64,000 nucleotides of DNA from a virus, in IMG/VR virus record IMGVR_UViG_3300045684_000050, positions 32,001 to 96,000 of that record. One strand, written 5' to 3'. Below are positions 193 through 63,048 of the stretch, one piece after another; the first letter of the stretch is position 1; the number at the start of each line of letters is the position of its first letter. Under the pieces are notes generated by a model. The model had not been told where the DNA came from. It saw nothing but the letters and a program-made list of their open reading frames with translations, and ran no database searches. The translations under genes were made by a program, and so were the position numbers.

Positions 193-200
193 CAAAGATA
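193..200 (-). promoter_or_regulatory. Bacteroidota sigma70-type -7 element (TATCTTTG)
   Basis: Matches TAnnTTTG in an intergenic gap 22 nt upstream of the ATG at 171; no -33 TTTG seen. Confidence 0.4.
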
Positions 201-4319: not shown

Positions 4320-4351
4320 TTTGTAATATCAAAATTATTTAACTATTTTTG
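4320..4351 (+). promoter_or_regulatory. Full Bacteroidota sigma70 promoter (-33 TTTG, 20-nt spacer, -7 TATTTTTG)
   Basis: TTTG at 4320-4323 and TAnnTTTG at 4344-4351 with canonical spacing, in an intergenic gap. Confidence 0.65.
4330..4337 (-). promoter_or_regulatory. -7 element (TAATTTTG) upstream of the polymerase gene
   Basis: TAnnTTTG match 23 nt upstream of the start at 4307; no -33 element. Confidence 0.4.
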
Positions 4352-6236: not shown

Positions 6237-7397
6237 CTAAAATGGTAAATCCTCATAATCCTGTAATGGTGGTGCATCTTCAGGGAAATTAGTATTCTCA
6301 ACACCTGGAGATTTAAAAACTAATCTATCAGGTCTCACTCTATCTTGCCCTACTGCAGGGGGTGGCTGCATCTGTGGTGGCGGTGGAGCTTGTTGTACCT
6401 GTGGTGGTGGCTGTGGTGGTTGATATTGCTGTACTGGAGGCCCTTGTGGTGGAGCTATCGGTGGTGCTTTAACAGGAGGTGGAAATCCAAAATCATCAGG
6501 CCTGGTAGCTTGTCCAAACCCAGCTTGTGGAGAATCAGGAGGTTTTTGGTATCCACCAACTTGCCTTGAAGGGTCAGTATTGTACGTCTGATTTATCGGA
6601 GGTGGTGGTGCCGGCTGCTGATACTGTTGCGGTGGTGGTGCCGGCTGCTGATACACATGAGCCGGAGGTTGCGGCTGCTGATACTGTTGCGGTGGTGGTG
6701 CCGGCTGCTGATACTGTTGCGGTGGTGGTGCCGGCTGCTGATACTGTTGCGGTGGTGGTGCCGGCTGCTTACCTGTAGTCTGCGGTGCATATTGCTGCTG
6801 TTGTGCATATTCATCATATTCGTTTGGGCCCTTTATGCTTTTCAAAATACTTAGCTTGTGAGCAACATCCTGAGTAAACCAACTATACAATGTAGCATTC
6901 TGCTCCCTATAATCCCAAGTCATCCCTTCATACCCCCTAACCTGTACAGGCGGTGGTAAATTATCTGAAGAATATGCTGGAGTTAACTTACTACCGTCCT
7001 GGAATAAATTTAACCCTACATTCCTTTTTCCATCATTCCCGGTGATATCATAAGGAACAATAGTCATTTCTTTCATAATATCTACGTTCCTAAAAATCTT
7101 AGCAAACCTTTTGCCATATCCACTATCAAAAGGAAATGCCAATGAAATTTTATCACCATCAGACTCCATCCATAACCGGATCTCCATGGCATTAAACTTC
7201 TCGTTATTCTGAACTTTAATATCAGAAATATGAGCACTAATGCTACTGAATGAATAGTAGTACAATATACTACCATCTTTCTTCTTTCTAGTGTTCAACT
7301 GATATTGTGGCTGCTCTGGTTGCTCATTAAATGATTGTGTCAACTTACCATTGTAAAAAGATAAGTAAGATGACGAAGATGCTTGTGTTACCTTCAT
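6237..7397 (-). CDS. Putative single-stranded DNA-binding protein with long Pro/Gln linker
   Basis: Beta-rich N-terminal domain, disordered P/Q region, acidic C-terminal tip DYEDLPF, located in the replication module. Confidence 0.6.
   Translation of the reverse strand: MKVTQASSSSYLSFYNGKLTQSFNEQPEQPQYQLNTRKKKDGSILYYYSFSSISAHISDIKVQNNEKFNAMEIRLWMESDGDKISLAFPFDSGYGKRFAKIFRNVDIMKEMTIVPYDITGNDGKRNVGLNLFQDGSKLTPAYSSDNLPPPVQVRGYEGMTWDYREQNATLYSWFTQDVAHKLSILKSIKGPNEYDEYAQQQQYAPQTTGKQPAPPPQQYQQPAPPPQQYQQPAPPPQQYQQPQPPAHVYQQPAPPPQQYQQPAPPPPINQTYNTDPSRQVGGYQKPPDSPQAGFGQATRPDDFGFPPPVKAPPIAPPQGPPVQQYQPPQPPPQVQQAPPPPQMQPPPAVGQDRVRPDRLVFKSPGVENTNFPEDAPPLQDYEDLPF
6601..6769. repeat. Coding tandem repeat, 30-bp unit, about 5.6 copies (QQYQQPAPPP)
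   Basis: ggtggtggtgccggctgctgatactgttgc repeated with two variant units. Confidence 0.95.
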
Positions 7398-8002: not shown

Positions 8003-8010
8003 CAAATATA
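8003..8010 (-). promoter_or_regulatory. -7 element (TATATTTG) at the head of the replication cluster
   Basis: TAnnTTTG in the 85-nt gap between the giant gene and 7965. Confidence 0.5.
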
Positions 8011-8050: not shown

Positions 8051-11000
8051 TTATTTTTTCTTTTTGGCGACTCTATTTGCTCTAAGGAAATCAAGATATC
8101 TGGAATCATTTTTCACTTTCCTAGCTAGTCTAAATACTTCTTCTTGCCTTTCTTCAGGATCTTTTATGCGTTCTAATGACTTTATATCTTCAGATACATA
8201 TTCATTGAATATATCTGACCAAATTTTTTGTGCATCTCTCTTGGCAGCAGTCTCTAAATAATAGTCACTTGTATTGACTTTCAGTTGAGCTTGAGATCTA
8301 TATTTATATAATTCATAGCTATCAATATCTTTACCATGGATAATTTTATATGCCGGGTTCTTTTCTGCTTCATTCATGTATTGACCCATCCTATCCGCAA
8401 ATGCATCAGGAAAGAAGTAAGTGTCAAAAGTAGTAGGGATTTCATTACCTAAAATATCGTGTCTGGAATCATCATCTTTCTCAAATAACGGTACATTCCT
8501 TAAAAAAGCATTCATAAAGGTTTCATTAAAATCCTCTCCATATAGATTCTGTCTTGGAGTTCCTGCAAACTCTTTATATTGTGTGAACCCTTGTCTATAA
8601 AAACTAGAGAATGTTTGAGCATTTAGTAATCCACCCATCTTAGATGCCAGCCTATTCTTAGCAAACTCTTTATCATTCTGATACCTTCGCTTCTCGTTAT
8701 CGTTCTCTGCTCTTAATATATTTCCATCAGCTTGTTTGATGGCAGTATAAGAATCTACCATATCAATAGCTGCATCAATACCAATTTCAAACCCTTCACC
8801 ATATATATGCTTTAATGCTCCCATAGCAAAAGTCTGTGCCACAATACCTGGACTTACCTCCTGTCCTGTATCAATCTTATCTCCAATAACACCAATCATT
8901 CCTAATGGTGCAGATAATGGCGTTTCAGTCCAATTCAAATGAAAACCTCCTATAGATATCGTGTTTTCTCTGAAATCATTACCAAGTCTATTTCTATTTG
9001 TTGTGTAATCTCTATAACCTTCAGAAGTAATACTTACCATATCCCACCAGTATTTATTCTTTACTGGCTTTAAATTCCCATCCTCATCTTCTTCCCAATC
9101 AAAAGCCATGGCTATTAAACCCAAAGCCATTCCAGTTCCTACTCCAGCCCTTATTCTAAAAGATTCTCTGTCTGCTTTACTTTTACGATTGTCTTTTATT
9201 AAAAGACCAGCTTCATCATTCTTTCGCCATAAGGATGAAAAAGAAAATCCAGGAACTCGCTTTAAATCCTCTAACGATACATTATTAATTAATACCTTTC
9301 CAGAACTAATATCAAAGGATAATCGGTCAATATTTGTGAATTCAGTAAGACCGGCTTGAATAAGTGCTAATGGAGACCAGTTATAACCTAAATATATACC
9401 ATTCCCTACAGTTCTTACAATAGGAGCAAAAGTTATCCTTAATAGTTGATCCGCTATTGCAGCTACAGTACTACCCTTATTTGCCCCTCGTGTAGTAGCT
9501 GTCAATGCATAAGCAATACCTCCACTAAATAATCCATTTACTTGACTATTTAAAACAGACGTTGTTAATGCTCTATCGTGAGCCTCTTTCCGAACACTTC
9601 TTGCAGCAACATTATCTTTACCTAACTTATCGACACTAGCCTGATAGGCTTTTTCCCTATTTTCTAACACTAAACTTTTTTTAATAGTAGCTAATTCACC
9701 TTTTGATAAATTTGGATCTTCTTTTATTATTGCGTTTATCTTGTCATTCAGATCCTTAGTATATTCACCTCCTACTCCTAATGCCGTTTCCATCTCATTA
9801 AAGAATTCAGCATTACCTCTTTTGAAGTCATAATCATACTTCTTCATTACTTGATCATGTGCCTCAATAAATGTAAGTGGCTCAACAGCAAATGTATTCA
9901 AGAATACATCAATAGCTTGTAATGACCTTACCATTATTCCCGGAAGAAATATAGCAGTACCAAATAAACCATTAAGAATAGATTCAGCTTTACCTAATTT
10001 TGTTTTGCCACTAAATTTTTGTAGATGATTAGAGATAAGTTCTTTTCTTGTTTTAGCATCAGGACCCCTCTGCCCAAAGATAAGATCCATACCATGATTA
10101 AGAATTACATCAATACTACTATACCCTTGATCTGGTATCTCCTCATAACTAACTCCAGGAGCTCCTCGCTTGAATGCATCAAAAAATAATTTAGTAGCAG
10201 TTGCTCTAAATAATTCCTTATTATTCTTTTGATATTTTAAGAAATTACCTATCTGACCTCTTAATGCTAATTGAGGTAAAGCTACAAAAGCAGCTTCTAC
10301 TAGGACTAATATTCCGGATGCGGCAACAGCCTTTAATACTGTATTTTGACCAGAAAGAAGATTTATAAATCTGACACCTGTCAATATCTTCATATACCTT
10401 TGCTGCTTACTCTCTTTAGCTTCTCTCATTATAGTATGCAGCTCCCTAGATGCAGCTTCCCTATTTCTAGGGTTTACATCTTCTTCAATTATCTTTGTAA
10501 GATCTGCAGCCCTTTCAACTTCTTCTTCCGTTAATTCCCGAAGACCAAATTTTTCTGCAAATCTCGCAACAATACCTGCATCTGTCATATCACCTATCCT
10601 AATGATATCTCTCATTCTTTCTTCAATAGTAGCTCGCTGTCTATTACTCCTAACACTTGATTTTAACAATCGATTTACTAACTTAATCCTTTTCTCTCCA
10701 ATAACCTTGTGGTAGGTCCCATTTAATACTTCAGCTAAAGCGGTAGCATCAGCTACAGATAGATCCATATCCCTAATTAACGAATCAGTAAGCATTCTTA
10801 CACTAAGATTGCCTTGTTTTACACTCTTTCTCATTATAGCTCCCATGGCTATATTCGAATAGTTCTGTGGCTTAGTACCATAAGGAATATCAATGCCAGC
10901 AGCTTTCAATTGCTCAGGACTCAACTTAGAGATACCATATGTTATAGCACTCATTATCTTTGACCTACTAGCATTAACAAAATTCTGATCAAGACTTAAT

Positions 11001-14000
11001 GCATCAATCAATGACTTGACCTGGCTAAATTGCTCTCTATATTTCGCTAACCCTTCACTTGTCGTCTGTGCATTAAGATGTGCTTCTATATTTGATAATG
11101 ACTTCTGTAAAACTTGTAATGCATTCTCTCTATTTAAAAATAAATCAGTCAATGCCTTTACACTATCATTTGAAATAATGAAATCTTCTGGCAATGCACT
11201 CTTTAAAAATTTACCTGTATGAAGTTTCTTGAATTCATTCCTTAATGTATTCCTTAAAGTACTATCAATTTTCCCAAGCCTTGTTGTAAACTCAGCAACT
11301 ACTTTATTCGCATATTGATTATCAATATATTTTACAATATCAAGATTATCTTTAAAAAAAGCACCGATATCATCGATATAATCTAACTCTAATAAAAAGT
11401 TCTTTACAGCATCTAACGCTGCATCAGCACTAATTTGTGGATCTTCAAAAATTACACCTATGGTTCCTTTTACTTCTTCCTTATTCTTAATATTAAGTTT
11501 TGAGAAAAATGGATTATTATCAATATTAGTGTCTGTCCTAGAAGTACGTTTTTCTCCAAACAGCTTCAACATTCTGTCAACTAATTCTCTCTGATCCTGA
11601 CTTAAATTGTTAAGTCTCGATGCAGCATTAATTATTTCTTGATTAGATAACAGGTCTTTAGTCTCAGAATCAGCATTTTTTGCAACTTCACCTGATATGA
11701 ATTTAGAGAACTCCGCTAACGTCATACCATCTTTATCCATAGTAACTTTCTCAGCTTCTTTAAAATCAACACCACTCATTCTATTACTAATATTGATAAA
11801 CTCTTTACCCATAGTAGCACTCTCTAAATTCCTGGCCGCATGGCCAATAGCAGGAAAAGCACTGGTGACTTGAGTGATCTCAGCTCTGGTAATATTTATT
11901 TCTTCTTGAATTCCATCAACTTCTACTCCAAATGGAGCAGCAGATAAAGCTAATTGCTTATTTAATAAATGGTCTAATGTAAGAACATATATATCTAAAT
12001 CTCTTAAATCAAAATCTCCTCTCCTAAAGGCTTTTAATTCATTGACAAAATTACTTAAAGAAGCTTGATCATTACCGATACCAACTAACATTGAATCTAC
12101 TGCAGCAAATAATTCCTCAGTAGTCCTCCTATAAGATTGAATATCATTAAGGTCATCTAACTGTGCATCACGCAACTCTGGACCTAACTTAGTGAAAAGT
12201 CTACGCATGGTCCTATTAACTTCTGGATCAGATACAAAGTCAGCAGATCTCTGAATAGACGATTTTGCACTCTCCCGGGTATATGCCTGTCTTACAAATT
12301 CTTCCTTGATCCCTCTTCTATCAAATTCAGGCTTAAATGCTTCATAGAAAACATCGAATGTAGCTTCATCTTTAAAACGATCTACTCTCTCATTCAAATA
12401 GTCTTGTTGCTCCTTTAATAACCCTCGATCCCTAAGAGATCCTTCGAATTGCTTTATGTAAAACTTCCCATTAGCATCCTTTCTAAGTATATCAGCAAAA
12501 AATGATGTATTACCAATCCTAACTACATACCTACCTCCATCAACTTGATATATATGCCTTACGTTTCCAGATGCATATTCTCTCTCTCCTTGGAAATTCT
12601 TAATCCATATAGTTACTTTATCTCCAACCTTAAAATGCCTATTCCTATTGAACCTGGCAAAGAATGGTTGCGTTTGTCTATTAAAAAGATCAGCACCCCC
12701 TCTATAGTCTTCAATCCTAAAAACTTCGCCCTTGCTAAAAGAATCAGCAATACCATTAACAACATTGATTAAGTCATTAATCGTATCTACCTCTATATCA
12801 ACATCTCTGCCTATCAACTCATTAAACCAAGCTTTTATACCATCTATTATCTGTTGAGTTTTAGGTTTTGATATCCTTCCAGAGACTGTAGATAACAATC
12901 CGACTAACTCAGCAAAAAATTCATTGGCCCGGACAATATCTAATGGCCTATTACCTTGAGCCTTTGTATATTGAGATACAAAGGTCTCTACCTTCAATGC
13001 TAAATCTTTCTCGAAAGCATTACCATTGTTCAGTACACTACTAATGATGTTATGTAATTCTACAATTCTATCTGAACTAGATAAAAATGTCTTTACAGCA
13101 ATAGCATGTACAGCTTCGTGTACTACATCCTTTGAAGTTGATACTTCTGAATTTATATATATGGTATCAGTTATAGGATCATAAACTCCTTTGACATTAA
13201 CACCATACTTACTATGTAATCCTATAGTATTCGAAACAACAAATTTCGTCCCAGGACTTACCTTAGACAAAACTATCTTAGCTTTACTTATTGCATCCTG
13301 AATATCTGTTCCTACACTGACAGATACTTCTTCTACATTAACACTATCAAGATCAGTATCACTCATGGAGATGACGGTACCATCAGCAGCCTTCAAAATA
13401 TAATTCCTTACTCCATTGTCATACTCAATACCATCTACAGTAAATATCCCTTCATATCCAATCTCTCTTAATTCATAAACATCACCTACATTTAGCAATG
13501 CATCTGGGTCTTGAACATTTAACTCAGAAACTAGCTTTTTATATTGTGAAGCTAAAGGCACATTATTGCTTACCGCCAATTCCAATACGTCACGCATGAA
13601 CTCATCGACACCTGCAAAACCATCGTTAGGCTTCCTATTCAATACATGCATATAATATGCATTAACAATAGAATCAGGACTCGTTATTCCATAGTTCTTT
13701 TGTATATCTCTCATCTCCTCTCTAGTGAAAGGATATAACTCCATAGCATCAAACTTTCCGCTTTCAGGAAATGCAACAGCATTGGCCAACATCAACGCAC
13801 CCTTTGTTTTATTAAATTCGCTAGGGAATAGATCATAGTAATCCGCTGCCAATCTAGCAACATTCCCATCAACATTCATCGACAAGTAATACTGATAAGG
13901 GTTTGCTACTGCATCTGGAAGATCCATCTGCTCAATAGCGTCCAAGGTATAATTGCTATCAGTGATGTTCTCAACACCTGCTTGGGAATACCTATTTGAT

Positions 14001-17000
14001 AAATCTCCAAAACTGATATCATTGTTTAAGAAGTCAGCAGCATAAGCATCCCATACCTTAGTTATATCTGCCTTTAATAACCCTCCTTCCAAAAGATCAG
14101 AAATATTATCTAGGATTTCATTCTTTTTCGTTGAATTTGGTAATAAATTTCCACTAACCAAAGACACATATGCCCTGTAAACATTTGTATTTGTATTTCT
14201 TATAAAATCTGACGGGTTCTCTACACCTAAACTACTCAATGCCCTTCGCATGGCACCTTTAAAAATATCAGTCAACCTCTTATCTATACCAGACTTTAAT
14301 GTGTTAACAGCAGAGTTATATTGAACCGGGTTAATCCCGTTCTCCATTATCTCTGCATCAATATTTTCATTTATCTCACCTAAAGCAATATCTACAGCTA
14401 CTTGATTGATAGAGTCATTAAGACTATAAAAAATATCATTATCATTACTGAAGCCTTTTTCAATTAAAGTTTTCAATACATTGATATCCGCTGCATCTTT
14501 CGATGGGTCCAAACTATCAACAAATAAATTAGTCTTCCCTGTAAGTATATCTGCCTTACCTAAACTCTGCCCAAACATATCAGCTCCTGAATTGTCTTCA
14601 GCAGATTTATTGAAACTCTTGACATAATCCTTAAAGGCTCTCTCTCCACGAGTAATATAATAGGCAGCTAAAATACTATTTGTAGTATATCCGGATCCAG
14701 AAAATAATGACAACTGATTTACTAACCCAGCAATACCACTTAACCCTTTTGATCCATTAGTATAATCATTTAATAATCGAATAGCTCCATTGATATCATC
14801 AATAATACTAAAACCTTTTAATCCTGAATTAACAAGCAAATCGGCACCTGCATAAGAAATAGCATTGAAGACAGACTTTAATCCATCTTTTCTTGCTAAC
14901 GAAAGCAGATCGTTATCAATGGTAGCAGACATTATCGTTACCTTTAATAGATCCTTTCCTAGATCAGTAAGTCTTGTTGATTTACCTTCTGTAGCAAAAT
15001 ATAAAGGAGCCTCATTGTTATTGATTATCTCTGACTTTAATAATATCTTTTTGAATTCATTGACATTAGAAGTCACAGCATAGTACTCACTAAGCACATC
15101 ATATTCTGACACACTTTGTGCAATTGATGATATTATCTTAGCTGAAAGCTGACTCTTTATTCTTTGTGATTTCTCCTCTATAGATTCACTTTTTATAGCA
15201 CTTGCATTGAATTTATGGAATTGAGCCTTTGTATATGCCGCTTCATCTGTCAACTCTCTAACAAGGACAGGAGTATCAAAAGCTTCCATCGCAGCATCAA
15301 ATTCCTTCTTATTGAATCCTAATCCTTCCGAATAATCAGGTAAGGCAGAAACATACAATCCATCAGTTCCATTAGTAGCTGCTAATTTTCTGGACATGGT
15401 TCTATTGTTACCACTAATAACAATACCATCTCCGGTAACTACAATAGGTTCATCTAATGCTCTCTCATCAAACCTGGATGCAAAAGTAACTACAGCAGCC
15501 TTAGCATCTTCGTTACTCTCATAGTTCCTTGAATTTACGGTGGTGCCATCTTCATTCGTAGGAAACCCTTCTGTCTGGCCGAATGTGTTTTCATCATGTG
15601 ATGCAAATATATTAGATGCATCTACTAATACATATTTAGCATTTAATCTCTCACCACTAGGTAATATTATTGGTCTTGATTTACCTTCTACTTTCCGAGC
15701 ATTAGTATAACTACCAATTACCGCTTCGCTCGCCTGACCTGTAGTTCCATCATCTGGAATATCTTCGCGTCCGTACTCTTCAAAATCTTGATCATCTTGT
15801 AATTCTTCTTCAATTTCAAATTCAGGATAGTTCTCAATGATATATGGAGACTTCTTTAACTCAGTAAATAACCCAGCAACAAATATATCCTTTGAGCTGT
15901 TATTAAAAGCTCTTAACATTCCAGCCTTTAAGTCTACTGAACTGATATTGCTACCATCAACAAACACTTCATTGCCAACTACAGTAACAGGATCATTAGT
16001 ATAATCTACATTGCCTGCCAAGGACATGAAAGGTTCTGCATCAACAGATGACCTTACTATCCTTACTCCTTGAGCTCTTAACCTATTCTCTACCTCTACA
16101 TCTGTACCTTCAGGAACAATAGCTACTCCAAAAGCTCCTACAGATACTGGATGATTTAAATTAGTCTGTGATACACCTTCTGGATAATCCCTCACCTGGG
16201 AAACAAAATTGTCAACTAGCTCTTTTAATTCTGGATCCACCAAAGCACCTTCATCACCAGTCCTAAAGTATTCATTTATTGAATTCAATACAGCATTGGT
16301 AGCATCAGAATTTTGCCTCAAATATAATTGCTTGCCTTGATTTACTATATTCATCATACTACCCTTGGCATCTTCCAATAGTGTGCCTACATATTTAGGA
16401 TTACTGCTCTCTGATTTATTGACAGCTATATCCCTAACACTGGTAAACTGAGAATTGTCATTTTCAAAAACTCCTACACTACCTGCAGCATTCTTCGCAG
16501 CATTGATGAAGTGTTTCGTTATCCTCTCAATAGGATTGCCTGAGAACTCTATGACACCTGTCTCCTCAAAAGGAACAAATACATTCTCTGCATTGATATT
16601 GTTATTTGATAGATTCAATGCATCCTGAGTGCCAACAAGAACTATCTGTCCTGATGAGCCGGCCACATTATCTGTCAATGATATCGAAGTTATAGAATCA
16701 TCACCTGTAATGTCTTTAGCATCTAATTTAGCTATTACACTTAATCCCTGTGGATTCCTGGAAAATAAAGCATTTTGACCTTCAGGTGCCTTTTCTTTTC
16801 CCTGTAATACATTAGCTACTTCAGAAACATAATCTCCATTATTAGAATACACATTTACCTTTATACTTCCTCTTAAAATAAAAGGAATATATGGTTCTAC
16901 CTGAGCATATAATTCAGGATGATTCTTTTTCCAATTCTTTATAGTAGCTGCATCAACTTCTAAGCTTACATCATCTATCTCCTCAGAGATATCGATACTT

Positions 17001-20000
17001 GTAGTATTGAAGATTACAGATTTCTTTTTAGAAAGATTAGTGTTATCTACTCTTTTAGCTTCTACCTCATTCTCTATACGTCTTGACTCGGCTGCACTAA
17101 GGATGGCTCCGTTCCTACCTGTGCTGGGGTTGTACCTGCGATACCTTCCTGCATCAACGTCCCATCGGTAGTTTTTTCCTCCATTGCTGGTGTAGAACTC
17201 GGGTTTGCCACCTGATTCGTTATTTCTGTCTTCAGGTCTTGTGCTTCTTGTCGGAGTTTGCTGTTCTGTGCCCCTTCTTGTGTTGGGCTGTCCGGAACTG
17301 CGGATACCACGGATGGTCCGGGCCTTACCTCCTTCTGTGAATCCAGAGACGACGCCTTGTTCTGCTTTCTGAACTCCATCAACCTGCGGAGAATTGGCAT
17401 CTGCTTCTCTTGTGATAGCTTGTTCAGCCTTTGTAATAAGCTGCTCTGATTGCTCGAGCTGCTCAAGATCGGATTGGATATTAGGATCATTGTTTAATAA
17501 GTCTTTTTGAATTAAAAATGCGATGTCATTAGCTTCCTTTCCTGTAAATTCTACTTCTTCAGTATTGATAGCTGCATCATTACCATATTCACCTGTAAGT
17601 GTACTCTTTTGTAATACTACAGATGTAACATTTCCTTGATCATCATATGTGATAGCATCTACTATGTCCGGAGCAGTATACTTCTCTCCATTAATATTAA
17701 AACTACCATCACTTGTAATATTAATAGCAGTAACAGGAGATACTCCTAGTTCAGATAAACTTACATCTACCTGATCATTAATGTTACCTAATTCCCTAAT
17801 AGTATTGTTCTGTTCAACTTCTAACCTACCACCTTCAGTAAGCCTTAATATCGCAGGCTGTCCGTCAGTAGTAAGGACTTCTACCTCTTTATCACCTTTA
17901 AGATCCTGATTGTCTAAATCGAAAGCATTATAAACACTATCATCTGGGATCCTGGTAAATTTCTTTCTCTTTCTTATTTCTTCATCCTGAAGATTCTCGT
18001 CAACTGGAGGAACAACAGTTCTTGCATTAGTATCTGCTATCTGACCAAAATCATAAATATCCCTAAGTTTATTTACAAATTTCTGAGAAGTAGTATTATT
18101 AAAGTTCTCTATAATAGCTGCTGATTGTTCAGGACTTGCACCTTGGAATAACCTACTATTGGTTATATCATCTTCTGTAAGCTCACCAATTTCAGCTAAG
18201 TATTCTAATTTGCGAATCTCCTTCCCTGCATCATAAGTAACATCTTGAGTAGTAGGATTTCCTTCTCCATCCACATCAATTACTTGCACTTTACCTTCAG
18301 CTGCTTTCTCTTCTTTTATATAATCAGTAAGAACCTTATCTGTATTAGTCATTGGCCTTAGTGGCTCATCTGGGTTGTCAATGACTTCTTCAGGATCCTC
18401 GTCTATCAAGTTCTCTTTTGCAGCTTGAGCCCTTAGATCATTAGCCGTAACTTTTGGTGGTATTGGAGGTGCCTTAATATCTTCCTCTGCCCGGGACTGT
18501 GAAGTATCAACAACATTTTCTTTAACTACCTCGGCATTAGCAAATATAGCATCTACTCTCTTATCAAATAAACCCTTGACATCTTTGCCTCTTACTGTCT
18601 GACTTGTTTCCCTATAAACAATATCTTCTAATTCTGCCTGTTGAGATTTAGTTAAATTGACGTTTGTTTCTTTCTGTTTTTCACTGATATAGTTAAGCCT
18701 ATTCTTGGCCTGAACTACCATCTCAGCTTTTTTTATAGCTTCTTCTTCTGTGATCTGGCCGTCAGCAATCATTTGTCCTAATGTCTCTGAAAACCTCTCA
18801 TAGTTATGAGCAGCCTGGACTACCATCTTCCCATATTCATTCTTTAATGTATTGTAGTTTGATACTGCAGCTATAGGTGCAGTAGCTAATGGTGTAGTTA
18901 CCAATGTTGTAACAAAATCATTAATTGTCACATTACTCTCAGCACCAAACAAACTATTAGCCATGGCTTGACTATACAATACCGATATCTCCTCCGCTTC
19001 CTCTCCTACAATTTCCTTTTTTATACCCTTAAATAAACTTTTATTGAAATTAAATTCTAATGGAGACTTAATAGCATCTTCAGCAGCTCTCTTCCCTGCA
19101 TTTTTAAATGCTGTGCCTCTCGCTGCATTGATAACACCTTTCTCAAATCCACCTATCAATGTACCTCCAGATTCAATACCTGCAGTTATTGATCCATATA
19201 AAGCAGCTTTTCCTGCATCTCCACTCCTTGCTAATTCCTCTTGATAAGCAGTACCATACGTCTGAACAAATAATGTGCCTACCAATCCGGCTCCCCCTGT
19301 AGCAGCACCAGCAGCCAACATAGGAGCCATCTGAACTACAGTATTAAATGTATTGTATGCAGCAGACTTAACTTGACTGGCACCAATACTCAACTCAGGA
19401 GTATAAGACCCTTTGTTTATATTATATTTATCAACAGCAGCCTTTTCTTCATCTGTCATGTTAACAGCAGTCTTCCCATCTGGCCTTATTATCCTAGTAA
19501 ATTCTCCACTATCATCAACCGCTACAACATGACCATCTATGTTGACAGTCTTTTCCCATAAAGGAGCAGAATAATCACTCCTTACCGTCGTTTCTTCTAA
19601 TTTCTTGACCTGCTTTAAAAAGTCTTGATTTGACAACTGATTAAAAAGTCTTTTCTTAGCCGGCCCAAAACCAGGTTCCTTATTCGCTGCTTCCAGCAAC
19701 TCTTTATTAGGATCTCCAGACACTAAACTTGGTAATGATTCCCAAAAATCAAGATATGATTGCTTTAGACTATTCCTTACCGTGCCAACAACACTAGGCT
19801 TTTGACTCGGCATTAAGTTCTGAATTGGATTCAATAAGCTAGGAATATCACTAATATTAAATAAGGATTGATCCTCATCCCTATCTGCCTGAATATCTTG
19901 TTGTGCTGCACCTACAGCTTCATCGACTCGATCTCCTTCCTCTACACCTTTAGTTCCGAAACCAGAAGTTACACTAAATCCCTTTCTTATCTCTTTACTT

Positions 20001-20920
20001 TGTTCGCTAGAATTTCTTAATTGTTCCATGAACCTTTCCATCCCATCACTAAATCCATCAAGATCAGCAATGCCACTATTCGTTACATCTTCATTAGTCT
20101 TAGCTTGTAATATCTTATTTGCTACTTCTCTCTCCTTCCCGTTAAGTTGTTCAGCACTATATTGTAGCTGCATATTCATCATATCAGAATAATCCTCAAG
20201 GTAATTCTTAGACTGAAAATATATCTCTTTGCTATCATTATCAGTAACCAAATTTCTCTTTTGGTTTTCTAACTTCTCCTTTGTCTTATAATAAGCATCG
20301 GCAACACTAATCACAGGAAGATTTGCTCCTCTGACAATGGCAGCATGTTCATCCTGCTTCTTGTTTAAGTTTTCTCTCCTTGACCTTACTCCTTTCTCTA
20401 TATTCTCATCCTGAGAACCTAGAGTTACAAATGGATTCCTACTCTGAGTAGCCAACTCTGTCTTTTTTCTTGCTACTTCATTAGCGATATCAGCTTCTTC
20501 TGAATCCCTCTTTATAGGTGATGCTTCTTCTTCTGACTTTATCTTTCGATGCTGATCTACAAGATTGTCAACATCTGGATCCGCAAATGTGATTCCTTTT
20601 ACCGTATACTTATTAGGTATTTTTACACCTAACTCTCTAGCTATACTCTCTACCATATAGATCGATGGAGTATCACCCTCTTTTTCTTTTAATATTCCTG
20701 CAATAAAAGAACCAGGATCATTAATATTATTCTTATATACCCTGGATACCGCACCTGTAGTTATCTCTTGACCTTGATCTTCAAGATATCCTTTTATATA
20801 TCTGATAAACCCTCTACTTACTTCTGCAGTTAACTTAGGTGATGCTTCTGGAGGAGTATCATTACCTTCTAAATCTTGAACGGTTGTCTGTGCTGCTTCT
20901 TGTAATTCTTCTTCTTCCAT
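8051..20920 (-). CDS. Giant 4289-aa virion cargo / polyvalent protein (ParB-like and zincin metallopeptidase domains)
   Basis: ddrB-like ParB signature (ASHD..F..RNY..EPIVVTGDGIVISGNNRTM), HEAVH zincin motif with downstream EFFAE, hydrophobic C-terminal region; position of crAss-like ejected giant proteins. Confidence 0.8.
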   Translation of the reverse strand: MEEEELQEAAQTTVQDLEGNDTPPEASPKLTAEVSRGFIRYIKGYLEDQGQEITTGAVSRVYKNNINDPGSFIAGILKEKEGDTPSIYMVESIARELGVKIPNKYTVKGITFADPDVDNLVDQHRKIKSEEEASPIKRDSEEADIANEVARKKTELATQSRNPFVTLGSQDENIEKGVRSRRENLNKKQDEHAAIVRGANLPVISVADAYYKTKEKLENQKRNLVTDNDSKEIYFQSKNYLEDYSDMMNMQLQYSAEQLNGKEREVANKILQAKTNEDVTNSGIADLDGFSDGMERFMEQLRNSSEQSKEIRKGFSVTSGFGTKGVEEGDRVDEAVGAAQQDIQADRDEDQSLFNISDIPSLLNPIQNLMPSQKPSVVGTVRNSLKQSYLDFWESLPSLVSGDPNKELLEAANKEPGFGPAKKRLFNQLSNQDFLKQVKKLEETTVRSDYSAPLWEKTVNIDGHVVAVDDSGEFTRIIRPDGKTAVNMTDEEKAAVDKYNINKGSYTPELSIGASQVKSAAYNTFNTVVQMAPMLAAGAATGGAGLVGTLFVQTYGTAYQEELARSGDAGKAALYGSITAGIESGGTLIGGFEKGVINAARGTAFKNAGKRAAEDAIKSPLEFNFNKSLFKGIKKEIVGEEAEEISVLYSQAMANSLFGAESNVTINDFVTTLVTTPLATAPIAAVSNYNTLKNEYGKMVVQAAHNYERFSETLGQMIADGQITEEEAIKKAEMVVQAKNRLNYISEKQKETNVNLTKSQQAELEDIVYRETSQTVRGKDVKGLFDKRVDAIFANAEVVKENVVDTSQSRAEEDIKAPPIPPKVTANDLRAQAAKENLIDEDPEEVIDNPDEPLRPMTNTDKVLTDYIKEEKAAEGKVQVIDVDGEGNPTTQDVTYDAGKEIRKLEYLAEIGELTEDDITNSRLFQGASPEQSAAIIENFNNTTSQKFVNKLRDIYDFGQIADTNARTVVPPVDENLQDEEIRKRKKFTRIPDDSVYNAFDLDNQDLKGDKEVEVLTTDGQPAILRLTEGGRLEVEQNNTIRELGNINDQVDVSLSELGVSPVTAINITSDGSFNINGEKYTAPDIVDAITYDDQGNVTSVVLQKSTLTGEYGNDAAINTEEVEFTGKEANDIAFLIQKDLLNNDPNIQSDLEQLEQSEQLITKAEQAITREADANSPQVDGVQKAEQGVVSGFTEGGKARTIRGIRSSGQPNTRRGTEQQTPTRSTRPEDRNNESGGKPEFYTSNGGKNYRWDVDAGRYRRYNPSTGRNGAILSAAESRRIENEVEAKRVDNTNLSKKKSVIFNTTSIDISEEIDDVSLEVDAATIKNWKKNHPELYAQVEPYIPFILRGSIKVNVYSNNGDYVSEVANVLQGKEKAPEGQNALFSRNPQGLSVIAKLDAKDITGDDSITSISLTDNVAGSSGQIVLVGTQDALNLSNNNINAENVFVPFEETGVIEFSGNPIERITKHFINAAKNAAGSVGVFENDNSQFTSVRDIAVNKSESSNPKYVGTLLEDAKGSMMNIVNQGKQLYLRQNSDATNAVLNSINEYFRTGDEGALVDPELKELVDNFVSQVRDYPEGVSQTNLNHPVSVGAFGVAIVPEGTDVEVENRLRAQGVRIVRSSVDAEPFMSLAGNVDYTNDPVTVVGNEVFVDGSNISSVDLKAGMLRAFNNSSKDIFVAGLFTELKKSPYIIENYPEFEIEEELQDDQDFEEYGREDIPDDGTTGQASEAVIGSYTNARKVEGKSRPIILPSGERLNAKYVLVDASNIFASHDENTFGQTEGFPTNEDGTTVNSRNYESNEDAKAAVVTFASRFDERALDEPIVVTGDGIVISGNNRTMSRKLAATNGTDGLYVSALPDYSEGLGFNKKEFDAAMEAFDTPVLVRELTDEAAYTKAQFHKFNASAIKSESIEEKSQRIKSQLSAKIISSIAQSVSEYDVLSEYYAVTSNVNEFKKILLKSEIINNNEAPLYFATEGKSTRLTDLGKDLLKVTIMSATIDNDLLSLARKDGLKSVFNAISYAGADLLVNSGLKGFSIIDDINGAIRLLNDYTNGSKGLSGIAGLVNQLSLFSGSGYTTNSILAAYYITRGERAFKDYVKSFNKSAEDNSGADMFGQSLGKADILTGKTNLFVDSLDPSKDAADINVLKTLIEKGFSNDNDIFYSLNDSINQVAVDIALGEINENIDAEIMENGINPVQYNSAVNTLKSGIDKRLTDIFKGAMRRALSSLGVENPSDFIRNTNTNVYRAYVSLVSGNLLPNSTKKNEILDNISDLLEGGLLKADITKVWDAYAADFLNNDISFGDLSNRYSQAGVENITDSNYTLDAIEQMDLPDAVANPYQYYLSMNVDGNVARLAADYYDLFPSEFNKTKGALMLANAVAFPESGKFDAMELYPFTREEMRDIQKNYGITSPDSIVNAYYMHVLNRKPNDGFAGVDEFMRDVLELAVSNNVPLASQYKKLVSELNVQDPDALLNVGDVYELREIGYEGIFTVDGIEYDNGVRNYILKAADGTVISMSDTDLDSVNVEEVSVSVGTDIQDAISKAKIVLSKVSPGTKFVVSNTIGLHSKYGVNVKGVYDPITDTIYINSEVSTSKDVVHEAVHAIAVKTFLSSSDRIVELHNIISSVLNNGNAFEKDLALKVETFVSQYTKAQGNRPLDIVRANEFFAELVGLLSTVSGRISKPKTQQIIDGIKAWFNELIGRDVDIEVDTINDLINVVNGIADSFSKGEVFRIEDYRGGADLFNRQTQPFFARFNRNRHFKVGDKVTIWIKNFQGEREYASGNVRHIYQVDGGRYVVRIGNTSFFADILRKDANGKFYIKQFEGSLRDRGLLKEQQDYLNERVDRFKDEATFDVFYEAFKPEFDRRGIKEEFVRQAYTRESAKSSIQRSADFVSDPEVNRTMRRLFTKLGPELRDAQLDDLNDIQSYRRTTEELFAAVDSMLVGIGNDQASLSNFVNELKAFRRGDFDLRDLDIYVLTLDHLLNKQLALSAAPFGVEVDGIQEEINITRAEITQVTSAFPAIGHAARNLESATMGKEFINISNRMSGVDFKEAEKVTMDKDGMTLAEFSKFISGEVAKNADSETKDLLSNQEIINAASRLNNLSQDQRELVDRMLKLFGEKRTSRTDTNIDNNPFFSKLNIKNKEEVKGTIGVIFEDPQISADAALDAVKNFLLELDYIDDIGAFFKDNLDIVKYIDNQYANKVVAEFTTRLGKIDSTLRNTLRNEFKKLHTGKFLKSALPEDFIISNDSVKALTDLFLNRENALQVLQKSLSNIEAHLNAQTTSEGLAKYREQFSQVKSLIDALSLDQNFVNASRSKIMSAITYGISKLSPEQLKAAGIDIPYGTKPQNYSNIAMGAIMRKSVKQGNLSVRMLTDSLIRDMDLSVADATALAEVLNGTYHKVIGEKRIKLVNRLLKSSVRSNRQRATIEERMRDIIRIGDMTDAGIVARFAEKFGLRELTEEEVERAADLTKIIEEDVNPRNREAASRELHTIMREAKESKQQRYMKILTGVRFINLLSGQNTVLKAVAASGILVLVEAAFVALPQLALRGQIGNFLKYQKNNKELFRATATKLFFDAFKRGAPGVSYEEIPDQGYSSIDVILNHGMDLIFGQRGPDAKTRKELISNHLQKFSGKTKLGKAESILNGLFGTAIFLPGIMVRSLQAIDVFLNTFAVEPLTFIEAHDQVMKKYDYDFKRGNAEFFNEMETALGVGGEYTKDLNDKINAIIKEDPNLSKGELATIKKSLVLENREKAYQASVDKLGKDNVAARSVRKEAHDRALTTSVLNSQVNGLFSGGIAYALTATTRGANKGSTVAAIADQLLRITFAPIVRTVGNGIYLGYNWSPLALIQAGLTEFTNIDRLSFDISSGKVLINNVSLEDLKRVPGFSFSSLWRKNDEAGLLIKDNRKSKADRESFRIRAGVGTGMALGLIAMAFDWEEDEDGNLKPVKNKYWWDMVSITSEGYRDYTTNRNRLGNDFRENTISIGGFHLNWTETPLSAPLGMIGVIGDKIDTGQEVSPGIVAQTFAMGALKHIYGEGFEIGIDAAIDMVDSYTAIKQADGNILRAENDNEKRRYQNDKEFAKNRLASKMGGLLNAQTFSSFYRQGFTQYKEFAGTPRQNLYGEDFNETFMNAFLRNVPLFEKDDDSRHDILGNEIPTTFDTYFFPDAFADRMGQYMNEAEKNPAYKIIHGKDIDSYELYKYRSQAQLKVNTSDYYLETAAKRDAQKIWSDIFNEYVSEDIKSLERIKDPEERQEEVFRLARKVKNDSRYLDFLRANRVAKKKK

Positions 20921-20923: not shown

Positions 20924-23581
20924 TTATTGGATTCCAGTTTTTTTATTAATACTATCGAAAAAATCTATATCTGATACAGGATCAGACGCTAACACAGGAC
21001 CAACATTAGATGTTGTATTACCACTAACTAATTGATCATAATAAACCAAAGCATTCTCAATCAATGGATTAGTTTTTTTAGGGAGCCCATCACTTTTTCT
21101 AGCACTACCATGCCATTTCTTTTTACTCAATCCTTTATTTAAATCAAATCCATCTAAAAATGTAGTCTCATCTCCGACACCTGACTTTGGTAACTTTTTA
21201 CCAGGTGCCTTAACAGTAGTTTCATATTGACCTAGAACCCTTTGCATCACATCTTCTTTTGTAATACCGTTCTCTATCATTTTAACTGCAAGCAATTTAG
21301 CACCTGCATCTAATTGTGCATCAGTCCACGTTTCATATGTACCTCTTTTAGGATCTATCTGTAAAGCCTCAAACTCTATTCCAAGGAAATTTGCATTGAT
21401 ATCATTACTACCTTTATATTTAGCTAAATGTTTTCCTTTTCCACCTCCATGATGTGCAACTAAATCATCATTAACTAACTGTATTATATTTCCAGACTTT
21501 GTAACTAAGTAATGGGCAGAAGTGCTGCTGTCTTTTGTAAATGTATCTAATGCACTGGCACTACTTGATCCGGTCTCATGAATCATTATACCATATTTCT
21601 TAGTGCTTAAATCTGGATTAATAACTTTACCTCCAGAACTTCTTCCTAAATTAGTTTTAGGAACACTATCAGCATAACTATTTATTGTTATAAAGTCACT
21701 AGGAATACTAACATCTTTCGTAGAATTATATAACTCTAAAATGCGATTCCTTTCATTAAAAAACCTCTGCTCTACATGTGGATGCTTTCTAATTACACTG
21801 TTATATGCCTTTACTTTTTGATTAGCAAAATCTACAGCAAATTCTCCACTGTTAGTATACGTCTTTTTAGGTAAACCTTCTAAAGCTTTTTTAAATGATA
21901 CAGGACCCTGATTGTAAGAACCAAACAGAATATCACCAATTACAGGAGACATAACAGATCCTAAATTAACCCCTAAATCATTCAAAACAGTCTCAACTTT
22001 TGGGACTACTTTATTTACAACAAAATCATCTTGTAATCTAGCAAATCCTCCAAAATTTGCATCCGTTGAATCATTGAACCACTTATCTATATCATCGTCA
22101 TGTCCTGATATAGGTCTTCCGTATCCATTCTCTTCAGCATAATTAATAAATTCGTCTAACTTGCCACTCTCCCTATTAAATTGATATAACCCCCAGGAGT
22201 CCTCTTGCTCACCTGTATCCGGATTTATTATTTGACTTCTCATCGCTGGGTTTAAAACAGATCCACTTTCTGCACCTATTGTAATTGGAAATGTTAAATC
22301 ATCAATAGTGAAAGTATTACCACTTCTATTCTCAATAACTTCACCTGTACCAGTACTTGATGTTGCTAATTGGTTATTTGCTTTTTTTTTATTATTACTA
22401 TTGCTAAAGGTAGTAGCTCCTAATTCTTCCTCAATAACCTGATCTATTGCATCTCCATTGGCTCCTGCACCAGCCTTCTTAAATGGAATAAATATTCTGG
22501 TCGTCTTGTCAGGATCAGAACCATATTCTAATTCTATCCCTCCATCTACATCTCTAATTTTCTTGAAATTAGCCTTCGCATAACCAAATACATCATTTTG
22601 GAAATTAGTGAAATCTACATTAGGATATAACCTAGAAAATGCATCTGTCTGAACCAATGCCCTTTTCTCTCCTTCTGTTAAGTTCTCTCCACTTCTACCT
22701 CTACTGTTATTCCTACTGGCTAAATCAGCTTCAGCTTGAGTAGTAGTAACTCTCCTAGATGCATAATTATCAATAACTTCATTCAGGTAATTATTAATTA
22801 CCGTTTTATCATTAGGATCTCCATACTCAGAATTAGTAGCTATCAACGCTTTTAAATTGTTGTTGAATGCAGGACTATTTCTTAATTGATCAGTAAACCG
22901 AGATACAATGCCTTTTACTTGTTCACTATTTAGATTGACTCCAGTAGTCTCATCAACAAAAACATATCCATTTGGCCCCTGCCTAATATCTAGTCCTAAT
23001 TGCTCAACAAAACTATTCAATCTGTCTCCTACTACCTGATCTACATCCATGCTCTGGAATGGAGCCGTAGATAATGATAGATCTCCTCTTTCCTTCTTGG
23101 TAGTATTGTAATAATTTAAAAGCTCTCCCCTAGCTAATGTAGCCAATCCACTATTTACACCCTGCAAATCAGATATATGAGTCTTTAATTCATCAGCCTT
23201 TTGTTGATCATTAATTACATCAATAAAATCTGCATCTTTTAACATGCCTTGGACACCTTTTTGGATAAAAGAAACCTTTGCAGGATTACTCAAATCCTCA
23301 ATACCTAATGATATGTCATCCTCATGGACACCATATTTTTTCTTCAAATCATTAATTACTGATCTCTGATGATCATTGTCAAGTCTTAATCCCAATACAG
23401 TATCAAAACTTTCAGCAACAGTAGAGAAACCTTCCTCTATCTGATTTAATGTTAACTCTCTGGAATTGGAAATACGATCACTGAAATTTAATAACTGATC
23501 TACCGGTATTACCGTATTCGATTGTCCAGGTACATATTGTCTTTGTCCTGCACCAAAACTTTTAAAGACGTCGTAGGGCAT
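20924..23581 (-). CDS. Virion cargo protein with lysozyme-like domain and C-terminal N-acetylmuramoyl-L-alanine amidase (Amidase_2)
   Basis: IMIHETG...SAHYLV...G.IIQLV.DD.VAHHGG...N.N.LGIEFE; central AESG...SWGLYQF. Confidence 0.8.
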   Translation of the reverse strand: MPYDVFKSFGAGQRQYVPGQSNTVIPVDQLLNFSDRISNSRELTLNQIEEGFSTVAESFDTVLGLRLDNDHQRSVINDLKKKYGVHEDDISLGIEDLSNPAKVSFIQKGVQGMLKDADFIDVINDQQKADELKTHISDLQGVNSGLATLARGELLNYYNTTKKERGDLSLSTAPFQSMDVDQVVGDRLNSFVEQLGLDIRQGPNGYVFVDETTGVNLNSEQVKGIVSRFTDQLRNSPAFNNNLKALIATNSEYGDPNDKTVINNYLNEVIDNYASRRVTTTQAEADLASRNNSRGRSGENLTEGEKRALVQTDAFSRLYPNVDFTNFQNDVFGYAKANFKKIRDVDGGIELEYGSDPDKTTRIFIPFKKAGAGANGDAIDQVIEEELGATTFSNSNNKKKANNQLATSSTGTGEVIENRSGNTFTIDDLTFPITIGAESGSVLNPAMRSQIINPDTGEQEDSWGLYQFNRESGKLDEFINYAEENGYGRPISGHDDDIDKWFNDSTDANFGGFARLQDDFVVNKVVPKVETVLNDLGVNLGSVMSPVIGDILFGSYNQGPVSFKKALEGLPKKTYTNSGEFAVDFANQKVKAYNSVIRKHPHVEQRFFNERNRILELYNSTKDVSIPSDFITINSYADSVPKTNLGRSSGGKVINPDLSTKKYGIMIHETGSSSASALDTFTKDSSTSAHYLVTKSGNIIQLVNDDLVAHHGGGKGKHLAKYKGSNDINANFLGIEFEALQIDPKRGTYETWTDAQLDAGAKLLAVKMIENGITKEDVMQRVLGQYETTVKAPGKKLPKSGVGDETTFLDGFDLNKGLSKKKWHGSARKSDGLPKKTNPLIENALVYYDQLVSGNTTSNVGPVLASDPVSDIDFFDSINKKTGIQ

Positions 23582-23583: not shown

Positions 23584-25491
23584 TTATCTTTTTAGGTTGT
23601 TTAACTTGTCTGTATATTGCTGTGCAGCATCTTTGAATTGCTTTAACCTTCTTAAAGCTAAATCTCTGTCAGCAGCAGTTTGAGCATTAATAACATCAAG
23701 TGTTAATCGCTGAGAAGATATATTGGAAAGATTTTGACCTACTTCTGAATCTATCTGCCTAGATACTAAATCTTCATTTAATAATCTCTGATTCTTACTA
23801 TTTATATAATTTCCTAAAATCTGAGATCCTTGAGCTATTTTCTGATTTACTTCTTTTCTGCTTTGTTCGTCAGCAGCAGCTAATTGGCCTTGATTGAAAT
23901 CATTGACATTAGCTAGCTCATTATATTTTGCCTGCTCTTGTTGTCTATTGAAAATCGCTAGATTTTCCCTGGTGCCTGCAGACCTATTTAACAATCTAGA
24001 AAATAAAATAGGAGCTACTGATGCAGCTACACCTTCAGCCCCCTGAAAACTCTTTACTATATTTTCTCCTTGGCCTAATATAGCATCAGATTGAGCACTT
24101 ATTTGCTGAGGAGTAAAACCCCTAAATCTTTCTTCAATAAATTCAGGTCTTCTAAGTCTTACCTTTGGAGTTGTACTCTGAGCACCTAAAGCTACAGTGC
24201 TACCTACCAATGATATCAAATCATTAGATCCTAGCATGCTAAATATATCTCTATTTTGTTGTTGCCTTTGCTCTCCATTAACAACCACAGCCTGAGCATC
24301 TTGATCTAAGATATCATTTGATCTCTCAAGCAAATTATCTAATCCACTGCCTGACAAACCTAGTGAATCTAATATATCATTTATATTCCCGGATCCAGCA
24401 CTGGCAGCAGCTGTAGAATTCCCTTCTCTTTGAATTAGAGGTGCCATCTGAGTTATAGTATCTGCTCCTTGATCAGAAGTAAAAGAACCATTAGATTGAC
24501 TTGTCAATTCATTAAGTAAATTTGGATCACCTAATACTTGCAATAAATTATTCCTGATAAATAAATCATTTAATGGCAATCCACCTAACAAATATTGACC
24601 TATTGGGGTTATATCCTGATAATCTAATTCTATATCACCTTTAGCCTGTTCATTCGAAGCTAATAATGCTTGAATAGGAAGTCTCCTGCCCCTAATGTTC
24701 TCTTTGTTTGTAACATCATCAAGATAACTAAGACCTCTTTTTTGGTCCTTTACCTTAAATTTCCTTCTTATTGTCTTTCCTGCATCAGCAATAGTCTCGT
24801 CACTCTCATTAACATAATCACTTAGCTCTATAGGCTCAGCCTTATAATTGCCTTTCCCTTCTTCATATACAGGAGTAGAATAACCTATAGTTCTATCACG
24901 ATTCTTTTGTGAAAGTTTAAGTTTATTGGAAAGTATATAATCGCCTGCAGATGCAAAATCAGTAACCTTGTTTTTTGACATATCACTATGCATTTCATCT
25001 GAATGCACATCAACTAAACTACCATCCTCCCTGACCATTATTTCATTGTATTCAGCCTGAATAGGAGCAATAATGCCAGATAATTCATCGCCAGGAGCAA
25101 GATTCTCTACATCAATATATCCTCCCTTTCCAAATAATCCAGATCCATCACCTATAGATCTTGAATACAACCTATTTCTTGTCTCGATCCTGTCTCTCTC
25201 CATGTTATTATTCTCCTGTAACCCTCCAGTGATACCACCTAATATGGAGCCTAACAATCCCCCACCTAATCCACCAAGCAATCCAAACTGACCTAAACCT
25301 AATCCACCAAACTGCAAAGCACCTCCAACAGCACCAGCTTCAGAAGTAGCATTGTCGCCTACATTTGTATTTAAAATTGCTTGCCCGGTAATCTGACCAA
25401 TAGATGAAGTACTATTCCTTAACCCATCTAAAAACTTTCGCAATCTTTTTCGTTCAAGATCCTGAACATTTCCAACGATATCCTTTGGCAT
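23584..25491 (-). CDS. crAss-like cargo/ejection protein (C1-like)
   Basis: Gly-rich hydrophobic N-terminal hairpin, FGKGG, AEYNEI...H.D......DYILSNKLK segment, helical C-terminus; synteny. Confidence 0.55.
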   Translation of the reverse strand: MPKDIVGNVQDLERKRLRKFLDGLRNSTSSIGQITGQAILNTNVGDNATSEAGAVGGALQFGGLGLGQFGLLGGLGGGLLGSILGGITGGLQENNNMERDRIETRNRLYSRSIGDGSGLFGKGGYIDVENLAPGDELSGIIAPIQAEYNEIMVREDGSLVDVHSDEMHSDMSKNKVTDFASAGDYILSNKLKLSQKNRDRTIGYSTPVYEEGKGNYKAEPIELSDYVNESDETIADAGKTIRRKFKVKDQKRGLSYLDDVTNKENIRGRRLPIQALLASNEQAKGDIELDYQDITPIGQYLLGGLPLNDLFIRNNLLQVLGDPNLLNELTSQSNGSFTSDQGADTITQMAPLIQREGNSTAAASAGSGNINDILDSLGLSGSGLDNLLERSNDILDQDAQAVVVNGEQRQQQNRDIFSMLGSNDLISLVGSTVALGAQSTTPKVRLRRPEFIEERFRGFTPQQISAQSDAILGQGENIVKSFQGAEGVAASVAPILFSRLLNRSAGTRENLAIFNRQQEQAKYNELANVNDFNQGQLAAADEQSRKEVNQKIAQGSQILGNYINSKNQRLLNEDLVSRQIDSEVGQNLSNISSQRLTLDVINAQTAADRDLALRRLKQFKDAAQQYTDKLNNLKR

Positions 25492-29387: not shown

Positions 29388-29426
29388 CCTCCTTGGCTTT
29401 TAATTCACGGAATTCTTTAACATTAC

Positions 29427-29434
29427 AAAGATAA
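29427..29434 (-). promoter_or_regulatory. -7 element (TATCTTTG) upstream of the endolysin
   Basis: TAnnTTTG in the 55-nt gap; no -33 element. Confidence 0.4.
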
Positions 29435-63038: not shown

Positions 63039-63048
63039 TGCAAAATTA
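63039..63048 (-). promoter_or_regulatory. -7 element TAATTTTGCA upstream of the scaffold/capsid genes
   Basis: Extended TAnnTTTGCA in the 48-nt gap. Confidence 0.5.

Follow-up and report, generated by a model that had tools for sequence, protein, structure and literature searches.

A cysteine-free giant, a probable cargo protein of polyvalent type with no recognisable RNA polymerase, at the virion polymerase position of a crAss-like phage genome

This study concerns a gene of 4289 codons encoded by a crAss-like phage, which lies on the minus strand at positions 8051–20920 of a 64,000-nucleotide stretch (the window) corresponding to bases 32001–96000 of the 116,794-bp metagenome-derived IMG/VR virus genome IMGVR_UViG_3300045684_000050 (G000). 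With a probability of roughly 0.7, we consider its product (P0001, the giant) to be a virion cargo, or ejection, polyprotein of the polyvalent kind and not an RNA polymerase (RNAP), acting by the mechanism set out below. The giant very probably lacks the two-barrel polymerase of the crAss type, and the phage as a whole probably brings no polymerase of any kind. The open reading frame (ORF) is real, translating without a stop through all 4289 codons, and its product contains no cysteine. The record carries direct terminal repeats and is rated 100% by CheckV, and it is thus regarded as a complete genome.

The genes of the window are nearly all located on the minus strand, and in the direction of transcription the tail ring genes are followed by two cargo genes and then by the giant. 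The ring genes comprise crAss tail ring protein 1 (25575–26591, minus strand; Pfam CrAss_Ring_1, E 2.2e-12, above cut-off) and a ring protein 2-like gene (27185–27904, minus strand; 25.1 bits, just under the 27-bit Pfam cut-off). The first cargo gene encodes 635 amino acids (aa; 23584–25491, minus strand) with no Pfam or PHROGs family match and with a 982-aa homolog in a related phage, G001. The second encodes 885 aa (20924–23581, minus strand) with an Amidase_2 domain identified by Pfam at aa 664–782 and would be a neighbouring wall hydrolase. This layout resembles the cargo block of the Flavobacterium phage Fpv2, in which gp31 (628 aa) and gp32 (732 aa) accompany the 4401-aa gp33 that holds the RNAP. 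The initial annotation had placed the giant at the position of the crAss virion RNA polymerase (vRNAP), and this placement was right, as the arrangement mirrors both Fpv2 gp31–33 and phi14:2 g067–g065. The portal belongs to phrog_6547 and the large terminase TerL to phrog_6681; among 50,697 phage records, the best TerL match was Cellulophaga phage phi14:2 (27% identity over 94% of the protein, E 3e-48). The Crassvirales features (tail ring, muzzle-like protein, portal and TerL) are present in the usual order, except for a displaced muzzle-like gene.

The catalytic loop of crAss-type polymerases was not observed in this phage. As a reference, we assembled 11 crAss-type vRNAPs, consisting of phi14:2 gp66 and ten diverse fetched cores, several of which sit inside fused giants of 4070–4774 aa; as a positive control, tblastn with gp66 matched 147 phage records. 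The loop [ST]GxD[FY]D[IV]D is kept in 11 of the 11 references, which agrees with the statement in the initial annotation that crAss-like vRNAPs carry a DFDID-type motif. Neither the giant nor any of its five relatives contains this pattern, and none of the six frames of the complete genome does; a six-frame scan of the whole 116,794 bp revealed no D-hydrophobic-D-x-D string. The only DxDxD-like strings in the giant are ADPDVDN (aa 114), ADRDEDQ (aa 346) and SDTDLDS (aa 2521), none of them conserved in the relatives, and no conserved DxDxD exists across the six-giant family. Of the two other cargo proteins, the 635-aa one has no such string and the 885-aa one only a DDDID near aa 495 that is not conserved, so that the earlier claim of no DFDID/DFDGD-type loop in the giant or the two other cargo genes was borne out. 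Columns acidic in every one of the six giants come together in a group of three at a single place, ExxEE at aa 640–644. A DFDFD string in the G001 giant (aa 3325) was considered and rejected as a polymerase loop, since other members read DVDIE, DINDID and so on at this place; it is part of an acidic segment some 100 residues beyond the zincin motif described below.

Profile searches led to the same result. A hidden Markov model (HMM) of the 11 polymerase cores (gp66 aa ~700–1760) was run with filters off against all stop-to-stop frames of at least 40 aa. Over the six frames of the genome, the best E value was 0.12, on an unrelated 136-aa frame, and the giant was not listed; nor did this search find an RNAP gene elsewhere in the genome, the observation that the initial annotation had named as contrary to its proposal. 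Leave-one-out controls of the same model gave E values from 1e-48 (Fpv2) to 1e-146. When complete genomes were searched with the core profile, no matches were obtained in G000, in G001 or in five phages of 68–78 kb (G002–G006), and the controls were recovered in phi14:2 (7.6e-297), Fpv2 (1.1e-140), p-crAssphage (6.3e-238) and crAss001 (E = 0, 1064.9 bits). Comparison by hhalign of eight overlapping windows of the six-giant alignment with the polymerase core gave probabilities of 0.1–0.5%, and the Pfam barrels of cellular polymerases, RNA_pol_Rpb1_2 and Rpb2_6, were absent from the genome while their controls were detected. BLASTP and phmmer searches with the giant and the 635-, 885- and 1803-aa proteins of this phage revealed nothing significant against gp65/66/67, crAss001 gp47/49/50, p-crAssphage gp44/45 or Fpv2 gp31–34. 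Weak collinear BLAST pieces had raised the C-terminal half of the giant as a gp65-like candidate; this was discarded, as the profile of that C-terminal module misses gp65, gp49, gp45 and Fpv2 gp34.

The giant is instead composed of modules that point to a polyvalent protein. The N-module (17423–20839, minus strand; aa 28–1166) is conserved in the relatives P0008, P0009 and P0011; P0010 has part of it, as does the ParB-bearing protein P0004 (2459 aa), which shares giant aa 428–796 and 884–1134. It consists of a charged start, Gly/Ala-rich hydrophobic helices, an acidic linker and a small beta-rich part; the helices (18851–19363, minus strand; aa ~520–690) include a transmembrane-like window at aa 534 and the conserved ExxEE. 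A variable insert without counterpart in P0008 follows (16127–17422, minus strand; aa ~1167–1598), and then a ddrB-ParB domain (15251–15658, minus strand; aa 1755–1890; Pfam PF18763, E 4.1e-8, above cut-off), which P0008 (1.4e-12) and P0009 likewise contain. This domain was the only one recognised when the giant was scanned with Pfam and PHROGs. Homology to other polyvalent giants extends to about aa 2126, and the precomputed Pfam assignments of ParB-region relatives include helicase families. Further along the chain, aa ~2130–2480 are helical in the model, and a small five-strand beta domain (13328–13480, minus strand; aa ~2481–2531) is modelled as Tudor/SH3-like (8swj_C, 51 columns, root-mean-square deviation 3.1). 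The next domain is zincin-like (12761–13243, minus strand; aa ~2560–2720), with HEAVH at aa 2601–2605 (window 13106–13120). Five giants share H2601, E2602, H2605 and E2637 without exception, and a single HExxH is likewise present in the sixth (G001); the region has no Pfam match, and its fold rows to anthrax lethal factor and collagenase G are weak, at E 0.1–0.4 only. The remainder is the C-module (8054–12073, minus strand; aa ~2950–4289, about 1330 aa), which is almost entirely alpha-helical and has invariant polar residues at R3665, D3671, N3675, E3680, H3994, E3999, D4014 and D4155. Low-complexity charged sequence makes up much of aa 1–420, 700–1000 and 1130–1260. A PDB sequence search with the whole giant gave no match at E ≤ 10, and no MuF-type or other packaging domain was recognised in it.

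Structure models were obtained with AlphaFold (AF2) for aa 1640–2839 and 3090–4289. The first, based on nine sequences, had a mean predicted local distance difference test (pLDDT) score of 61, with values of 70–90 over aa ~1730–2160 and 2270–2720. It was mostly helical, and besides its long helical stretches it contained alpha/beta parts of ParB-like and of zincin-like type and a mini-barrel of five strands. No Foldseek row for this model reached E ≤ 0.001; besides the two peptidases, the weak fold rows included ParB N-domains and a Tudor domain. The second model, based on a 34-sequence alignment, had a mean pLDDT of 64, with the last 450 residues mostly at 70–90, and showed about 47 helices with only short strands or hairpins. 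Foldseek (pdb) and VIA-align (wide) searches with it returned only generic helical-repeat and helical-hairpin rows (E ≥ 0.03, Z ≤ 6.7). The initial annotation had proposed a segment-wise model search for double-psi beta-barrels; within these two segments, at the mean pLDDT of 61–64, no paired six-strand double-psi barrels were found.

With the last 1200 residues of the giant as query, a full HMMER scan against 1.84 billion representatives identified four collinear giants, P0008 (3866 aa), P0009 (4043 aa), P0010 (5249 aa) and P0011 (5751 aa), three of them on contigs of 108–113 kb. A fifth relative is the 5027-aa giant of G001 (L020:927-16010). All five are collinear with P0001, at 25–30% identity over most of the length. 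G001 is a 131,999-bp record, rated 100% by CheckV and syntenic with G000, with which it shares ring proteins, fibres and helicase as well as TerL (36% identical), the portal (29%) and the 1803-aa gene (1814 aa in G001, 36%). Each of the six giants (3866–5751 aa) has no cysteine, one conserved HExxH and a ParB domain, and they differ mainly in the insert before ParB, that is, in variable content on a shared scaffold, as in polyvalent proteins. These features support the proposal of the initial annotation that the giant is an injected protein of the polyvalent kind. Neighbouring fibre genes in these phages, in contrast, encode cysteine-rich proteins, such as a 1776-aa G001 protein with 123 cysteines. 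Word-indexed searches over the whole length of the giant returned relatives of the ParB region only, or nothing. Locus searches with P0001, P0008 and P0009 in viral contigs, and with P0008 in metagenome contigs, gave no matches, and a locus search with the family alignment A2 found G001 only, once in each of the two contig sets.

The C-module has a wider distribution. By local jackhmmer, it is common, in collinear form, to about 35 proteins of 600–2900 aa, and no Pfam family was found in six scanned relatives. It occurs as a stand-alone gene at 42 IMG/VR loci (L028–L069), on contigs of about 5–78 kb, mostly 20–78 kb; viral contigs that have this form together with portal and terminase of crAss type number at least 42. 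One of these phages, G002 (68,109 bp, terminal repeats, CheckV 100%), has the same portal and TerL PHROGs as G000 and encodes a 1380-aa C-module protein with a weak match to a DarB-like PHROG; a 201-aa amidase gene is the adjacent upstream ORF (of at least 150 aa). At locus L028:10001-14143, the block also contains a 1627-aa acetyltransferase-domain protein and a 201-aa amidase, and the phage has crAss-type portal and TerL PHROGs without the vRNAP core. The language-model neighbours of the C-module are viral hypothetical proteins, the nearest Pfam-bearing cluster of which carries the polyvalent-protein domain LPD38. LPD38 was dropped as an identity for the C-module, Pfam finding no LPD38 in P0008, P0009 or P0034. 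Since the C-module is a separate gene in related smaller phages, the giant looks like a ParB-zincin polyvalent protein fused to a cargo protein common in RNAP-less crAss-related phages, judging from the sequences.

Several points weigh against this interpretation. The family libraries are blind in this case: phi14:2 gp66, a proven polymerase, has itself no Pfam or PHROG match, so that Pfam and PHROGs were uninformative on the RNAP question and our own core profile was built. The case rests on this purpose-built profile, by which a polymerase from another lineage could be overlooked. A search with the T7-type RNAP family PF00940 gave no match, and it carries no weight because its control was detected nowhere. 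The structure models cover 2400 of the 4289 residues at modest confidence, and aa 1–1639 and 2840–3089 were judged by sequence and profile methods only. In addition, the putative early genes, on the plus strand outside the window, lack the canonical host promoter element TAnnTTTG; the variant TAGTTATCTTTAT (TAnnTTTA) lies 27–50 nucleotides (nt) upstream of only about five of their starts.

Among the alternatives, a two-barrel polymerase could have diverged beyond sequence recognition and be located in giant aa 1–1639 or in the 635-, 885- or 1803-aa genes, which we consider unlikely. The vRNAPs of crAss-like phages evolve fast (PMC7886860), gp66 escapes the family libraries as described, and 44% of the giant falls outside the folded segments. 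Against this, the core is well conserved, as every leave-one-out E value was 1e-48 or better, and this includes Fpv2, whose TerL is more distant from that of G000 than the phi14:2 TerL is and whose core was detected nonetheless. The six-giant family has no conserved DxDxD, and an essential enzyme cannot reside in aa 1167–1598, a segment that varies and that P0008 lacks. After the variable and low-complexity parts are set aside, no conserved stretch of at least 600 aa remains in aa 1–1639. Within the unmodelled regions, the conserved non-repetitive parts are only aa ~420–700 and ~1000–1130, which are too small for a two-barrel core because this core takes about 700–900 residues in gp66. The 1803-aa gene, for its part, weakly matches the crAss muzzle family.

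A polymerase of an unrelated or undescribed type, either T7/N4-like or of a new fold such as the C-module, with early transcription driven by the phage, appears quite improbable. The C-module is large and conserved, with the invariant polar residues listed above, and the putative early genes have no canonical host -7 box, both of which would fit this alternative. However, tblastn of both halves of the giant against the 50,697 phage records, which should include N4-like phages, gave ParB matches only, and the PDB search was equally without result. T7-type motifs B and C do not occur together in any ORF of at least 400 aa. The C-module model is all helical, without a palm-like or barrel fold, and its language-model neighbours are the viral hypothetical proteins already mentioned, the LPD38 cluster being a lead only and unconfirmed by Pfam. 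Loss of the polymerase gene through incomplete or chimeric assembly, conceivable for a metagenome-derived record, is highly improbable given the terminal repeats and the CheckV value of G000, the independent 132-kb relative G001 with the same gene order and also without the core, and the three other family members on contigs of 108–113 kb.

The reading of the giant as an injected polyvalent cargo protein was compared with known systems. Fused gp67/66/65 polyproteins have already been described (preprint 10.1101/2020.03.07.982082), and other fused vRNAP forms include p-crAssphage gp44 (4070 aa) and cr55_1 (4551 aa). The giant shares with the phi14:2 gp67-gp66-gp65 block and its fused forms the place after the ring genes and two genes of 600–900 aa, the giant size, the likely virion cargo role and a zincin-type HExxH motif within the block. 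It differs in having no DxDxD loop and no similarity to gp65/66/67 or their homologs by BLASTP, phmmer, HMM or hhalign, and in carrying ParB and an unrelated helical C-module. According to Yutin et al. 2021 (PMC7886860), phages of the Epsilon group, Cellulophaga phage phi17:2 among them, have neither a transcription block nor a DNA polymerase, and their replication genes are minimal. The idea of a crAss-like phage without RNAP is therefore less new than the initial annotation assumed: such phages are already known, and G000 represents a second branch without RNAP, separate from the first and marked by its distinctive giant. In phi17:2, we obtained no match to the polymerase-core profile. Like the Epsilon group, G000 has no transcription block, few replication genes were recognised, and Pfam found neither a DnaG-type primase (DNAG_N was absent while its controls were detected) nor the family A DNA polymerase PolA. 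The recognised replication genes are a sliding clamp, an SNF2/ResIII helicase and a Gp157-like protein, a set resembling the minimal one of Epsilon-group phages. The two are not close, however, because neither TerL (no match to phi17:2 at E ≤ 1e-5) nor the C-terminal 1200 residues of the giant match phi17:2; the genomes of this lineage measure 117–132 kb, compared with about 150 kb for the Epsilon group.

Polyvalent proteins of phages and conjugative elements were reportedly treated by Iyer et al. in 2017. As in these proteins and in the P1 Dar/Ddr head proteins, one huge chain joins a ddrB-ParB domain to a putative zincin peptidase in the giant; unlike them, it is located in a crAss cargo block and fused to a 1330-aa helical module that Pfam misses. 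The T7 ejectosome proteins gp14, gp15 and gp16 and the crAss001 C1 and C2 cargo proteins are largely helical and include hydrophobic helices; they are packaged inside the head, undergo ejection in the unfolded state, and are found beside a wall hydrolase (Bayfield et al. 2023, PMC10172136; review PMC10136315). The giant resembles them functionally only, as no sequence or fold match was found.

Considering these likenesses, the following sequence of events is proposed. The giant would be packed in the head and pass the tail unfolded, a passage that the absence of cysteine would fit. Its hydrophobic N- and C-modules, together with the neighbouring 885-aa wall hydrolase, may help to open or line a path through the envelope. 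Incoming DNA or host defences could then be the target of the ParB-like and zincin domains, as has been proposed for the P1 Dar proteins. The first genes would be read by host RNAP, because no polymerase appears to be brought along; the reliance on host RNAP asserted in the initial annotation is thus inferred, the promoter evidence being weak and non-discriminating. Its further statement that the lineage lacks or has replaced the vRNAP holds in the first part, with none recognisable in the complete genome, and the term "replaced" applies only in the positional sense, with no homology. A sigma-70 region 2 gene was not found in the genome by Pfam. A doubtful extension of this model is that the C-module represents an undescribed ejected protein family standing in for the virion polymerase in RNAP-less crAss relatives, either by capturing host RNAP at the entering DNA end or by forming a trans-envelope channel for DNA and for ParB/zincin effectors. 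A second RNAP-less lineage that keeps the cargo-block layout and fills the slot with a ParB-zincin polyvalent protein suggests that the slot is a general position for an injected giant with exchangeable content. The lineage offers a natural comparison for what the polymerase is needed for, and the analysis marks out a large, widespread helical module without family assignment.

Host-type TAnnTTTG elements were located where the initial annotation had reported them, upstream of replication, lysis and capsid modules, and their statistical support proved to be weak. Seven sites lie 20–39 nt before start codons, including those named earlier. On the minus strand of the window, these elements were observed at 8003–8010 (38 nt ahead of the 180-aa gene that lies just downstream of the giant), at 4330–4337 (23 nt before a 504-aa gene), at 29426–29433 (TTATCTTTG, 39 nt before a 179-aa NlpC/P60 gene) and at 63041–63048 (22 nt before a 398-aa head-module gene). 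Genome-wide, the element occurs at chance frequency (156 observed, 155 ± 12 in shuffles). Intergenic copies are enriched about twofold (25 against ~12 expected, estimated from base composition), with unbiased orientation (13 productive, 12 non-productive). In phi14:2, which has a vRNAP, the middle and late genes are transcribed by the host and the early transcripts have no common motif (preprint 10.1101/2020.03.07.982082); since host RNAP is also used there, TAnnTTTG sites cannot tell the two life styles apart. Near-identical blocks with TAGTTATCTTTAT precede small plus-strand genes at genome positions 200–306, 3170–3274, 3790–3824, 6900–6955 and 114340–114397. A CAATAACAA leader was found just before the ATG in 8 of 20 gaps (shuffle mean 4.3, maximum 7), and the TAGTTATCTTTAT blocks with this leader are candidate early promoter and translation-start signals.

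Other features were observed in the genome. The 1803-aa muzzle-like gene (genome 26760–32171, minus strand; also L002:8760-14171) ends at window position 171, with a weak match to the crAss muzzle family PF25731 (24.5 bits, below cut-off) and a match to phrog_15100 (3.3e-15). Its position, behind the replication genes, is remote from the tail genes, and it is equally displaced in G001; a TTATCTTTG box is located 22 nt before its start (window 193–200). In the 885-aa cargo protein, aa 461–557 gave a below-threshold match to a VgrG3-like C-terminal domain (E 0.024), which may represent a second wall-directed domain. Finally, at the right end of the genome (116442–116794, outside the window), a tandem repeat with a unit of about 32 nt (TTCATAGATGACTGAATATGTAACCAGATATA) was identified within or near the terminal repeat.

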